Source of the DNA: an uncultured Acidobacteriaceae bacterium
GTDB lineage: Bacteria; Acidobacteriota; Terriglobia; Terriglobales; Acidobacteriaceae
Direction: 5' to 3'
Length of the DNA: 64,000 nucleotides
Assembly: GCA_963832035.1 (NCBI GenBank)
Contig: CAWHSK010000001.1
Span: 101,185-165,184 of the forward strand
Under the pieces are notes generated by a model. It was not told where the DNA came from, did no database searches, and saw only the letters and a list, made by a program, of their open reading frames with translations. Of this stretch, positions 13,721-28,571 are shown piece after piece. The position numbers were made by a program, and so were the translations under genes. Numbering within the stretch: position 1 is the stretch's first letter; each line of letters starts with the position of its first letter.

Positions 13721-14866
13721 TCAGCTTCTCTGGATCTGGGCGTTGGGGTTGTGGCCTGAGGCCGGCGTGAAAAGAGTGGCGAGCTTGTTGCCGATGGGGG
13801 AGCCAAGGCCGGTGCAGGGGTCGGGACCGGGGGCGGCGTTGTAGTAGCCGTTGCCGCCGCTGGTGATGTCGTTAAAGTCGGACTGGTTCTGGTAGAGCGA
13901 GGGCGTTACGAAGCCGAGCTTTTTTCCGAAGGCTGCGAAGAGACCTGCGTAGAGGGGCGCGACGGCGCTGGTGCCGCCGACGACTGTTGTCGATCCGTGG
14001 ACGAAGACGTTGTAACCGGTGTTGGGATCGGCGTCGGCAGCGACGTCGGGAACCATGCGGCCTTTTCCGTAGGGCGAGTTGGCGGGCGCCTTGGGAATGC
14101 CGATCTGAAAGCTCTGTACGGGAAAGATGGTGGAGTATCCGCCGCCAGTGCCTTCGCCATTGGTCTGGCCGGGGCTGTCGTTCCAGACGGTTTCGACTGC
14201 GGATGTTTTGTAGGTGCCCCCGCAACCCACGACGTGGGGGCACGACGAGGGAGCGTCGACGTTCGCGGGAGTTGAACTGCCATCGCTGGAGTCGTTATCG
14301 CCGGATGCGGCGAAGACAATCATGCCGAGGGCGGTGGCGGTAGCGGCAGCGGATTCCATTTCGTCGGCGGCCTCGGTGCCCCAGGTGGACTCATCGGCTC
14401 CCCAGGAGATGGAGCAGACGTCACAGCCATCGTTGGCGGCTTTCTCGACGGCGGTGGCGATGTCCTGCGACCAGTACATGCGGATGGTGGCGGGTTTGCC
14501 GGTGGCTGCGTAGTAGGCGGCCGCGGAGACTTCGATGTCGAGCGCGACTTCGTAATCGGGATCGCTGTTTGAGCCGGGGCTCTGGTTGGGGCTGTTCTTT
14601 GTGCCGTCGACAGAGACGTCGGTGATATTGGGAACCGGCTGATTGATGGATTTGAAGTATTGGTCGATGTCGGACTGGACCCATCCGCCACCGAGCTCAA
14701 TGATTGCGATGACGCCGCCGCCGGCGAGGTTGGTAGGCCAGTTGTAGGCCGCGCAGAGATTGGGAGTGCTCCAGGGCGCGGGCGCCAGGGGACCGAGTTG
14801 GAAATGGGGAGTGAGACGACGGAGACGGAAGTAGGGATGGCAGGGAACGCGCGGAGTGTTTGGCAT
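13721..14866 (-). CDS. Sedolisin/kumamolisin-like S53 serine peptidase lacking the prodomain
   Basis: IAIIELGGG, EVALDIE (Glu/Asp), SISWG, SGDNDS oxyanion Asp, GGTSAVAP (Ser) and DITSG...DPCTGLGSP Ca site; AAGGA RBS before the ATG at 14866. Confidence 0.92.
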   Translation of the reverse strand: MPNTPRVPCHPYFRLRRLTPHFQLGPLAPAPWSTPNLCAAYNWPTNLAGGGVIAIIELGGGWVQSDIDQYFKSINQPVPNITDVSVDGTKNSPNQSPGSNSDPDYEVALDIEVSAAAYYAATGKPATIRMYWSQDIATAVEKAANDGCDVCSISWGADESTWGTEAADEMESAAATATALGMIVFAASGDNDSSDGSSTPANVDAPSSCPHVVGCGGTYKTSAVETVWNDSPGQTNGEGTGGGYSTIFPVQSFQIGIPKAPANSPYGKGRMVPDVAADADPNTGYNVFVHGSTTVVGGTSAVAPLYAGLFAAFGKKLGFVTPSLYQNQSDFNDITSGGNGYYNAAPGPDPCTGLGSPIGNKLATLFTPASGHNPNAQIQRS

Positions 14867-15117
14867 GGGCGAGTGTCCTTTGTGGGATTTGGCGCTTCCT
14901 TGCGTGCTTAGATGCGGGAAGTTTGCAGTGGTGGTTTGAGACAAGGGTGTTGCGAAACTAAAGTTATGAAGAGCTAAAGCCTTAGTATGGTTGGGGGGGT
15001 GGCAGATGAAGGGGAATCGCGAGCAGGTTTTAACGAGCATGGTTCAGTTCTGAATCTCCTAGCAAGTTAGCGGCGCTTTGCGCCGAGCAAGTCAGCAAGT
15101 CAGTGGGGAGAAAAATT

Positions 15118-18512: not shown

Positions 18513-18550
18513 GGGTGGTGGCCTCCAGGCATACATCGTATACTGAGGGC

Positions 18551-19174: not shown

Positions 19175-20307
19175 ATGACGACGACACACGAACATCCCCT
19201 GTTGGAGATTCTCAAGAACCGCATTGCCATTATTGATGGCGCGATGGGTACGACCATCCGCACCTATGGCATGACCGAAGCAGACATCCGCGGCGAGCGC
19301 TTCAAGGACGCCAAGAAGGACCTCAAGAATAATGGCGACCTGTTCGTGTTGACGCAGCCGGAGATGATTGGCGACATTCATCGGCGGTTTTTGGAGGCGG
19401 GGGCGGACATCATCGAGACCAATACGTTTGGCGCGACGACTATTTCGCAGAGCGAGTTCTTTGTCGACGATCCGCGGGAGCATGGGGGTCGGAAGGATCC
19501 GGAGTTCTATCAGAAGATTATCGACGATCCGTTTTTGAAGGGCCTGGCGTGGGAGATCAACGAGGTTTCGGCGAGGATTTGTCGGGAGTGGGCTGACAAG
19601 GTTGGCAGGGAGACGGGGAAGCCGCGGTTTGTTGCGGGATCGATTGGGCCGCTGACAGTGTCGTTGTCGAATTCGCCGGACGCGAATGATCCGGGGTTCC
19701 GGTCGGTGACGTTCGACCAGGTGAAGACGGCGTATGCAGAGCAGGTGCGGGCGCTGATTGCGGGCGGAGTTGATTTTCTGCTGGTGGAGACGATCTTCGA
19801 TTCGTTGAATGCCAAGGCGGCGCTGGTGGCGATTCGCGAGGTGTTCGACGAGGATGGTGTTGAGTTGCCGGTGATGATTTCGGCGGCGGTAGGGCGCGGC
19901 GGAGAGACGTTGATTTCGGCGCAGACCACCGAGGCATTCTGGAACGCGGTGGAGCATGTGAAGCCTCTGTCGGTGGGATTGAACTGTTCGCTGGGGCCGG
20001 ATCTGATGTATCCGTTTCTGTCGGAATTGTCGGAAAAGGCGAACGTGGCGATTTCGTGCTATCCGAATGCGGGGCTGCCGAATCCGCTGTCGCCGACTGG
20101 GTTCGATCTGGGGCCGGAGGATATGGCGCGTTATCTGAGCGAATTTGCGAAGGCGGGACTGATCAACATTGCTGGCGGGTGCTGCGGGAATACGCCGGAG
20201 CATATTGCGGCGATTGCGAAGGCGCTGGAGGGGTTGCCGCCGCGAGAACTGAAGCGGGATGTGGATGCAGGCGAGGATGTGGACGCCGGCGTGAGTGAGG
20301 TTAGTCG

Positions 20308-20311
<4 letters not shown>
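19175..20311 (+). CDS. metH: B12-dependent methionine synthase, homocysteine-binding module (split metH, part 1)
   Basis: [23 protein letters not shown] and GGCCG zinc-ligand motifs; stops after this domain. Confidence 0.92.
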
Positions 20312-22998
<2,687 letters not shown>

Positions 22999-26711: not shown

Positions 26712-26740
26712 TTGCGGGCGCAACGGGGCTGTGATACAAA
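26712..26740 (+). promoter_or_regulatory. Probable sigma70 promoter driving the riboswitch leader
   Basis: TTGCGG-17 nt-TACAAA with an extended -10 TG, about 40 nt upstream of the riboswitch. Confidence 0.45.
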
Positions 26741-26777
26741 CTAAGCATTCAAGTTTGCCCCCAAAGGGCAAGCCTGA

Positions 26778-26885
26778 GTTTCATGCAGAGTGGCTGAGGG
26801 ACGAGCCCTGTGACGCCACGACAACCTGCCCGCGCAAAACGGGAGTATGGTGTCAACTCTTGCCCGGAGACGGGGAACATGAGAT
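26778..26885 (+). ncRNA. SAM-I (S-box) riboswitch
   Basis: TTTCATGCAGAGTGGCTGAGGGACGAGCCCTGTGACGCCACGACAACC...GGTGTCAACTC...AACATGAGA follows the S-box layout (AGAG, GAGGGA kink-turn, GCCC, CAACC, GGTGYYAA, closing P1 TCATG/CATGA). Confidence 0.88.
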
Positions 26886-27014
26886 TCGGGGGTTGCTTCA
26901 GCACTCTTTGCTTGAGCAGCTTCGCAGGCAGTTTCGAGTCAATTCACGTTCTTTCATTCCTGGGCACGTCACGCGCTCGCGTTCTTCGTGTCACTCGCAT
27001 ACAGCGAGGGACCT

Positions 27015-28306
27015 TTGACGACTGCGTATTGGTTGCGATGTCGGGAATGCGGCAAGACCTATGGTCATCAGCCGCTTTCGATCTGCGATGAGTGCTTTTC
27101 CCCGCTCGAAGTGACCTACGACTTCGAGTATGCCCGCACCCGCTTTACCCGCGAGACAATCTCCCAGGGCCCGCTGGATATGTGGCGTTATCGTGCGCTG
27201 CTGCCGGTTGCGGACAGCTACGTTCCGCAGACGCCGTCGGGGTTGACGCCGCTGGTGAAGGCTCCGCGGCTGGGCGCGCAGTTTGGCGCGACGCAATCTG
27301 TACATCAAGAATGATGCCGTATGCATGCCTACGCTGAGCTTCAAGGATCGCGTCGTGGCAGTGGCGCTGGCGAATGCGCAGGATTTCGGATTCGATACGG
27401 TTGGGTGCTCATCGACGGGGAACCTGGCGAACGCTGTTGCGGCGCATGCGGCGCGACTGGGGTTGAAGACGTTCATCCTGGTTCCGGCGGATCTGGAGCC
27501 AGCGAAGATTCTGAACACCCAGGTGTATGGGGCGACGCTGGTGCGCGTGGATGGCAACTACGACCATGTGAATCGGCTGTGCTCGCAGATTGCGGATCGA
27601 TATAACTGGGGATTTGTGAACGTGAACCTGCGGCCTTACTACGCCGAGGGTTCGAAGACGGTGGGGTTCGAGATCGCGGAGCAGCTTGGGTGGCGGCTGC
27701 CGGACAACGTGGTGGTGCCGATGGCGGGCGGTTCGCTGATTACGAAGATCAAGAAGGCATTCAACGAACTGATTGAACTTGGGCTTGTGGATGAGAAGCC
27801 GGTGCGGTTCTTCGGGGCGCAGGCAACAGGATGCTCGCCGATTGCGAAGGCTGTGAAGAACGGGACCGACGTGATTGAGCCGCAGCGGCCGAACACGATT
27901 GCGCGATCGCTGGCGATTGGGAATCCGGCGGATGGTATTTATGCGTCGCGCGTGATTCGCGGGACGGGCGGCTGGGCTGAAGATGTGTCGGACGTGGAGA
28001 TTGTGTCGGCGATCCAGGAACTCGCGGAGACTGAGGGCATCTTTACGGAGACGGCGGGTGGCGTGACGACGGCAGTGACGGCGCGGTTGTATGCGCATGG
28101 ACGCATTAAGCCGGACGAATTGACGGTCAGCTGCATTACCGGAAATGGCTTGAAGACGACGGATTGCCTGGACGGCGCATACGAACAGAGAGCGGCGATT
28201 CGTCCGCGGCTCACAGATTTTGAGAACTTCGTGGAAGAACGCAACGCAGCGAACCCTGCAAACTATCAGGCCCTGAGCCTGGCGGGAGAATCCGATGGCC
28301 TGTTAG
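27015..28306 (+). CDS. Threonine-synthase-like PLP enzyme (fold type II), interrupted by two apparent single-base frameshifts
   Basis: CRECG...CDECFSPL N-terminal zinc ribbon, PTLSFKDR (PLP Lys), SSTGNLA, PMAGGSL and TGNGLKT; TTG start with GAGGGA RBS; frame change near 27290; natural stop restored at 28304-28306 if one C near 28300 is removed. Confidence 0.85.
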
Positions 28307-28571
28307 AGTTTTATTGCCGAACGCATTTCAGAAACACACCAACAACGTGCGCGAGATTTCGAGTACTGCGTCGAATCTTCCGGAACTTGTTACCGATATC
28401 GAGGGTCGTTTTCCCGCGCTGCGGCAACATCTGCGAGGAGAAGATGGGCAGGTGCGGCGGTTTATCAACTTCTATGTCAATGAGGAAGATATCCGCTTCC
28501 TTGGGAATGACAAATATAACTTCCAGGAAGGCGATGAGGTGCTGGTTATTCCTTCGATTGCCGGGGGTTGA
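28295..28571 (+). CDS. MoaD/ThiS/CysO-family ubiquitin-like sulfur carrier protein
   Basis: FINFYVNEEDIRFL...EGDEVLVIPSIAGG with terminal Gly-Gly; the ATG at 28295 comes into frame (MAVRVLLPNAF) after removing one C. Confidence 0.9.

Follow-up and report, generated by a model that had tools for sequence, protein, structure and literature searches.

Does a gene whose public homologues are named 'threonine synthase', placed behind a riboswitch for S-adenosylmethionine (SAM), make threonine or homocysteine, and are its reading frames intact? The question is raised by a locus of an uncultured Acidobacteriaceae bacterium (GCA_963832035.1, contig CAWHSK010000001.1:101,185-165,184, forward strand; the whole stretch of 64,000 nt is called the window, and positions are counted within it). 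The genome, 5.73 Mb in size, is referred to as G000, its contigs as C2, C3, C4 and so on, and the loci of relatives as L001 and so on. We conclude that the locus is likely a metM-metO operon that is repressed by SAM and serves thiocarboxylate-dependent homocysteine synthesis, and that its two frame breaks most likely stem from errors of the assembly. Homocysteine rather than threonine synthesis had been proposed in an earlier sequence-only reading of this DNA, and we find support for it in a tree split, a separate thrC gene, the architecture of a Nonomuraea locus and the published accounts of Streptomyces albulus cited below, all of which point to this function by comparison. The frameshifts in metM and metO had been missed in that reading. 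The locus is composed as follows.

26755..26771, + strand: small hairpin TTGCCC-CCAAA-GGGCAA, from the alignment with relatives
26778..26885, + strand: SAM-I (S-box) aptamer, RF00162
26886..27014, + strand: putative expression platform, from a terminator scan and a minimum free energy (MFE) fold
27015..27314, + strand: metM 5' segment in frame 0 with TTG start and Cys4 ribbon, from translation and NF006050
27291..27294, + strand: extra base, after which metM continues in frame 1 instead of frame 0, from the alignment with relatives
27295..28306, + strand: metM core, a pyridoxal phosphate (PLP) enzyme in frame 1, from PF00291, TIGR00260, the tree and clade motifs
28295..28571, + strand: metO, a ThiS/MoaD-type sulfur carrier, PF02597
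28301, + strand: extra T that breaks the metM stop and the metO frame, from the alignment with relatives
19175..22998, + strand: split B12-dependent methionine synthase, Pfam

Six-frame translation downstream of the aptamer gave three coding pieces that are mutually out of register. The first starts with a TTG codon at 27015, which aligns with the ATG, GTG or TTG starts of relatives, and carries the Cys4 motif CRECG...CDEC (27039-27095) in frame 0; this segment matched NF006050, the threonine synthase N-terminus, with 63.5 bits. The second piece holds the enzyme core, which scored 213 bits with PF00291 and 265 bits with the thrC model TIGR00260 (cut-off 167); the Schiff-base lysine of its SFKDR motif is encoded at 27343-27345. 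A ThrC-like PLP enzyme with an N-terminal Cys4 ribbon, as the sequence-only reading had described it, is therefore present, and in 76 of 80 relatives the Cys4 motif is in frame with the core. The mislabelling that the same reading had predicted also holds, given the score above the NCBIfam thrC cut-off and the public names of the homologues.

A maximum-likelihood tree of 44 sequences (LG+C20 PMSF) set the window protein apart from canonical ThrC by a split with 100/99 support, in agreement with the earlier expectation. On the canonical side were four ThrCs from the PDB (Aquifex, Thermus, 6CGQ and Mycobacterium tuberculosis), the ThrC encoded on contig C4 and a third paralogue from contig C6. 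The window side comprised the acidobacterial orthologues, both actinomycete proteins and every other top-ranking database representative. Core identities followed the same division: 57% to the protein of Nonomuraea gerenzanensis and 54% to that of a member of the Micromonosporaceae, against 40% to the genome's own C4 ThrC and 34-36% to the solved ThrCs (36% to Thermus). Three loops at the ThrC active site are changed throughout the MetM clade, which has STGNL where ThrC has STGNT, VNVNLRPYYAEGSKT where ThrC has VN-SVNPyRlEGQKT, and PxAgGsL where ThrC has PVGNAGN. Presumably these are the loops that bind the substrate and the leaving phosphate in the Thermus ThrC structures.

The genome contains three ThrC-like genes, in the window, on C4 and on C6. 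Because the C4 copy (451 aa) is directly followed by a gene that scores above the cut-off of the thrB equivalog model (TIGR00191, 227.9 bits; cut-off 168), we regard the two as the housekeeping thrC-thrB pair. The sequence-only reading had been exposed to the possibility that the window gene was the only thrC of the genome, and this is not the case. Taken together, the tree and the C4 pair make the ThrC-fold enzyme of the window a paralogue, not an orthologue, of the housekeeping threonine synthase; its score passes the TIGR00260 equivalog cut-off, but it stands outside the clade of the four solved ThrCs. The C6 paralogue (C6:256315-257514, 399 aa) has an N-terminal Cys motif of its own, forms a very long branch near the canonical clade and stays below the thrC cut-off with 159 bits.

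The third coding piece is metO. Its open reading frame (ORF) in frame 0 ends with ...VIPSIAGG before a stop at 28569-28571 and matched PF02597 with 39.9 bits; the moaD_arch and SAMP1 models matched more weakly. The window protein is 31% identical to the Nonomuraea MetO, and the C-terminus of MetO was found in 79 of 80 relatives. In relatives the metO ATG overlaps the metM end (ATGGCCGTTAG), such that the metM stop TAG and the start of metO share 11 nt, and this overlap implies translational coupling, as far as can be judged from the sequence. The gene for a Gly-Gly (GG) carrier thus adjoins the enzyme gene, overlapping it in relatives and adjacent to it in Nonomuraea. Of the coupled MoaD-like protein ending IAGG that had been read from the window, the protein family and the terminus stand, but the metO ATG is out of frame as written. 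Since the window MetO ends exactly at Gly-Gly, it should need no trimming by the peptidase Mec before activation.

The MetO termini of acidobacterial relatives vary. In 29 of 79 the protein extends 16-48 residues past Gly-Gly with a Cys-rich end (e.g. L039-L048, L052-L066, L068, L069, L071, L075, L079 and L080), and these long tails share the motif C-x-CCSYCGQE(D/E)C-x-C(C/G)(D). Tails of two residues (CC, SR, SC and others) occur in 33 relatives, and 14 sequences, including that of the window, end exactly at GG. The Cys-rich tail had no Pfam or NCBIfam match, and we found no relevant paper on it. Such a tail may serve to bind metal or persulfide, or else its removal would have to precede thiocarboxylation.

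The operon is preceded by an S-box aptamer, as the sequence-only reading had it. A covariance-model search matched RF00162 at 26778-26885 (+) with 70.7 bits (gathering score 44.4; E 1.6e-14), full length over model positions 1-108 and with the four-helix junction. This was the sole match to any Rfam family in the window and the single RF00162 match in the 5.73 Mb scanned. Among 11 acidobacterial relatives scanned, the aptamer lies upstream of the orthologue in 10, and the contig of the eleventh ends before that region. We also found it at the two actinomycete loci, in Nonomuraea and in the Micromonosporaceae. The promoter proposed in the earlier reading was not recovered: a scan with the sigma-70 consensus found none upstream of the aptamer.

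A scan of the leader for intrinsic terminators found none, so that translational or Rho-dependent control by SAM is probable. The MFE fold of the leader contains a hairpin, formed by CTCGC (26994-26998) and GCGAG (27004-27008), which occupies the 5' part of the Shine-Dalgarno (SD) sequence GAGGGA (27006-27011). Among 73 distinct leaders of relatives, 68 (93%) gave an MFE fold with a paired SD sequence, as did 70% of shuffled controls. RNAalifold, applied to a MAFFT alignment of the SD region, gave no consensus fold. Directly 5' of the aptamer lies the hairpin 26755-26771, which is kept in relatives by compensatory changes (stem GCCC/GGGC in the window, GCTC/GAGC in L039, L054 and L073). It could be a stabiliser of the 5' end or part of the switch.

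The same parts recur outside the phylum. The Nonomuraea locus has a SAM-I aptamer, a gene for a ThrC-like enzyme with Cys4 motif and a gene for a 91-aa carrier ending AVAGG, in the same order as in the window; at the Micromonosporaceae locus the aptamer is present and an adjacent carrier gene is absent. Within Acidobacteriota, metM was detected in 39 of 200 high-quality genomes, representing 26 of 135 genera. All 12 sampled genomes of a sister family have it. It is present in 8 of 19 genomes of the same genus and missing from the other 11, several of which are 98-100% complete.

The remaining functions of the pathway are encoded elsewhere in the genome. Contig C3 carries a MoeZ/MoeB-type E1 with ThiF and rhodanese domains (394 aa; C3:363428-364612) and, 1.2 kb from it, a JAMM peptidase (146 aa; C3:365840-366280). 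This confirms the earlier statement that the activator and the peptidase are not in the window. As they scored below the equivalog cut-offs of the MoeZ and desampylase models, we assign both at family level only. With thrB on C4, the genome would also have its supply of O-phosphohomoserine. On C2, metY and metX form an intact pair whose products pass the models for homocysteine synthase and MetX, and a riboswitch was looked for on this pair and not found. MetM/MetO would thus be a second, SAM-gated route to homocysteine and not the sole one. Of the genes that had been named as informative for the sequence-only reading, a second thrC, metY/metX, moeZ and a JAMM gene were present.

About 4 kb upstream of the operon is the B12-dependent methionine synthase that had been noted before, in the form of a split pair (19175-20311 and 20308-22998). 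The first gene encodes the homocysteine-binding domain (378 aa) and the second the pterin, B12 and activation domains (896 aa), according to Pfam, and the two overlap by ATGA. Because the split is common to the clean congener G007 and to metagenome-assembled genomes from short reads, it is natural in this lineage. Apparent frame switches in this metH were considered as errors of the window and rejected, since the comparator genome G001 was at fault. Two glycoside hydrolase genes are further upstream neighbours of the operon, and acyltransferase genes and a LacI regulator gene lie downstream.

A thiocarboxylate pathway from O-phosphohomoserine to homocysteine has been described in S. albulus (Hasebe et al. 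2024, AEM 90:e0124724, as reported in GapMind 2026). According to the GapMind 2026 paper and preprint, MetO is the carrier and MoeZ the sulfur ligase, maturation of the MetO terminus requires Mec, and the homocysteine synthase MetM is 'often misannotated' as threonine synthase. A cyanobacterial study (PMC12172450) mentions that a SAM riboswitch precedes metM in S. albulus. From homology and from this work in S. albulus, we infer the following steps. O-Phosphohomoserine would be made by ThrB, and MoeZ would adenylate the C-terminal Gly-Gly of MetO and convert it to a thiocarboxylate. MetM would eliminate phosphate from PLP-bound O-phosphohomoserine and, where ThrC adds water at C-beta, add the thiocarboxylate of MetO at C-gamma. 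An S-to-N acyl shift would follow, and the JAMM peptidase (Mec) or hydrolysis would then free homocysteine, which the split MetH would methylate to methionine. When SAM is plentiful, it would bind the leader aptamer and turn the operon off. Judged by sequence, the operon matches every testable defining feature of the MetM/MetO pathway.

In the deposited sequence, however, neither metM nor metO has an intact reading frame. Frame 0 of the metM 5' segment closes prematurely at a TGA (27312-27314), and the PLP core continues in frame 1 from 27295. This frame-1 ORF lacks its stop and runs to 28581; the ancestral TAG (28304-28306) is out of frame, and so is the metO ATG (28295-28297) relative to the remainder of metO. 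These breaks go back to two single-base insertions private to the assembly, one within 27291-27294 and the other a T at 28301. At the first site the window reads GCGA[C]GCAAT and relatives read GCGA-AGAAT or GCCA-GCAAT; at the second the window reads ATGGCC[T]GTTAG and relatives read ATGGCCGTTAG. Because of the 11-nt overlap of metM stop and metO start, the one extra T both removes the metM stop and unframes the metO ATG. Neither extra base occurs in any of the 80 relatives compared; the first was absent from all 21 loci with clean local alignment and the second from all 20 such loci, and both were absent from L138. Leaving the insertions aside, the encoded proteins are 98-99% identical to their nearest intact orthologues, and no in-frame stops occur. 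In public protein collections, the exact 99-aa and 418-aa broken products occur only on one public contig, whose 308,002 nt equal the length of the contig studied here, and therefore the lesions belong to the deposited assembly. A 74-aa MetO fragment was considered as an independent broken copy and rejected: its locus, L138, belongs to a different species (89% identity) and has private insertions of its own.

The background rate of such breaks was estimated with two congeners: from 400 kb of each, the translated ORFs of at least 150 aa were aligned to G000, and a site was counted when a single intact ORF aligned in two adjacent frames. Against the single-contig congener G007 we found 17 frame-change sites in 259 kb of G000 (6.6 per 100 kb), and the reciprocal test gave one site in 274 kb of G007 (0.4 per 100 kb). 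Extrapolated genome-wide, this amounts to ~370 single-base insertions in G000. The sites (e.g. C3:1041345, C3:1067196, C4:338046, C4:393545 and C5:950530-950964) are almost all 1-nt insertions in non-homopolymer context, like the two in metM-metO, and for about half of them the next site is no more than 1.7 kb away. Several interrupt very long conserved proteins, e.g. ones broken into 834+290 aa and 92+1005 aa. The comparator G001 and the contigs L001 and L138 have the same error type as G000. Different private insertions in the same operon were found on other long-read contigs (in metO of L001 and in metM of L138 and L020), and a split metM was found in none of 46 short-read or isolate relatives. 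These observations make it very probable that the two frame breaks are consensus errors of a long-read metagenome assembly.

Two further places in the window were inspected. Position 18513 is another candidate for a frame-breaking insertion. An assembly frameshift was considered as the reason for the short sedolisin ORF at 13721-14890 (-) and rejected: the clean G007 has the same short frame (379 aa), G001 has 410 aa, and both align in a single frame at 87-93%.

Several observations weigh against our interpretation. Two insertions within 1.56 kb are improbable (~0.5%) under a plain Poisson model, and no other window-private out-of-frame indel was found in the ~12 kb of flanking coding sequence covered by relatives. 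Biological loss is plausible, as metM occurs in just 8 of the 19 same-genus genomes and metY-metX makes it dispensable. As the SD sequence is paired in 70% of shuffled leaders too, the SD hairpin is weak evidence for an expression platform, barely above shuffles. If the insertions were real, metM-metO would have been inactivated recently and be under loss, with the SAM riboswitch intact, the coding sequence otherwise undecayed and metY-metX as a redundant route. In addition to the clustering of the lesions and the absence of metM from 11 congeneric genomes, this explanation is favoured by the intact state of metY-metX, thrC-thrB, MoeZ and Mec and by a second sulfur-carrier cluster that looks truly degraded. 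The latter (C7:545883-547785) adjoins a tRNA gene and consists of a CysM-like PALP enzyme of which only the C-terminal ~88 aa remain (profile positions 224-295), a JAMM gene split over two frames and a carrier resembling CysO with the C-terminus IAGGGPLK. A simple 1-nt error does not account for the truncated cysM, which may be a real remnant. The lesions in metM-metO, in contrast, are of the type and clustering typical of the whole assembly, where they also affect long conserved proteins; they are unaccompanied by other decay, the identity to the nearest intact orthologue being 98-99% without in-frame stops, and private insertions, though not the same ones, occur in this operon on other long-read contigs. 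We therefore regard a real inactivation as unlikely.

The cell might also cope with the extra bases through programmed +1 frameshifting or quadruplet decoding and so make intact proteins. A +1 correction would restore the frame at both breaks, and nearly all aligned breaks genome-wide are insertions of the +1 type, as such decoding would predict. The sites have no motif in common, though, the closest relatives encode the same proteins without extra bases, the clean G007 has no such sites and each long-read assembly has different private ones. We consider this decoding extremely improbable. A different doubt concerns the function: the ThrC-like enzyme may not be a MetO-dependent homocysteine synthase but have another SAM-regulated PLP activity, e.g. 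as a second threonine synthase/deaminase, or perform another carrier-using gamma- or beta-replacement. The score above the NCBIfam thrC cut-off is in line with this, as is a Microcystis homologue encoded beside a metO-like gene, which had threonine synthase and deaminase activity in vitro and not full MetM activity (PMC12172450). However, SAM-I control, the obligatory pairing with a GG carrier, the separation from characterised ThrCs and the separate thrC-thrB pair all argue for MetM, as do the same architecture in actinomycetes and the pathway demonstrated, by the accounts cited above, in Streptomyces. Such an alternative activity seems to us quite unlikely, and a metM-metO operon with assembly errors is the interpretation that we prefer.

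Since the MetM/MetO pathway and its misannotation have already been published, the locus is a correct recognition of a published pathway in a new phylum and not a discovery. For Acidobacteriota, MetM/MetO is the annotation to be used for riboswitch-linked 'threonine synthases' with a MoaD/ThiS gene beside them, and this alters reconstructions of methionine synthesis in these abundant soil bacteria. Any apparent split gene, shortened domain or pseudogene in G000 needs to be checked against relatives before it is interpreted. If the insertions were true, the locus would be a snapshot of a sulfur-carrier pathway being discarded, in a genus of which over half of the species no longer have it.

With the MetM/MetO system of S. 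albulus, the locus shares a ThrC-homologous PLP enzyme and a ThiS/MoaD-type GG carrier, the SAM riboswitch, the annotation as threonine synthase and, elsewhere in the genome, a MoeZ-type E1, a JAMM peptidase and homoserine kinase. The match is to the published description, and the 57% identity to the Nonomuraea copy serves as the sequence proxy. Different here are the phylum, Acidobacteriota, the exact GG end of MetO and the coexistence with metY-metX. Compared with canonical ThrC (Thermus 1UIM, Aquifex 2ZSJ, 6CGQ and M. tuberculosis 2D1F), the fold, the SFKDR motif and presumably the substrate O-phosphohomoserine are common to both, whereas the window enzyme has STGNL, a shifted Arg in LRPYYAEG and AGGSL replacing GNAGN, is under SAM rather than threonine control and is paired with a carrier.

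The CysO/CysM/Mec/MoeZ system of M. tuberculosis also passes sulfur from a thiocarboxylated carrier to a fold-type II PLP enzyme with a phosphorylated amino acid as substrate, and it likewise has an E1 and a JAMM peptidase. CysM, however, is a beta-replacement enzyme of the CysK family that makes cysteine from O-phosphoserine; the window enzyme belongs to the ThrC family and is predicted to act on O-phosphohomoserine. In Wolinella succinogenes, the sulfur of homocysteine reportedly comes from a protein thiocarboxylate through HcyS/HcyF/HcyD and MetY, in work said to be by Krishnamoorthy and Begley in 2011. The PLP enzyme of that system belongs to the MetY-type O-acetylhomoserine sulfhydrylases and uses O-acetylhomoserine as substrate, whereas here its place is taken by a ThrC homologue.

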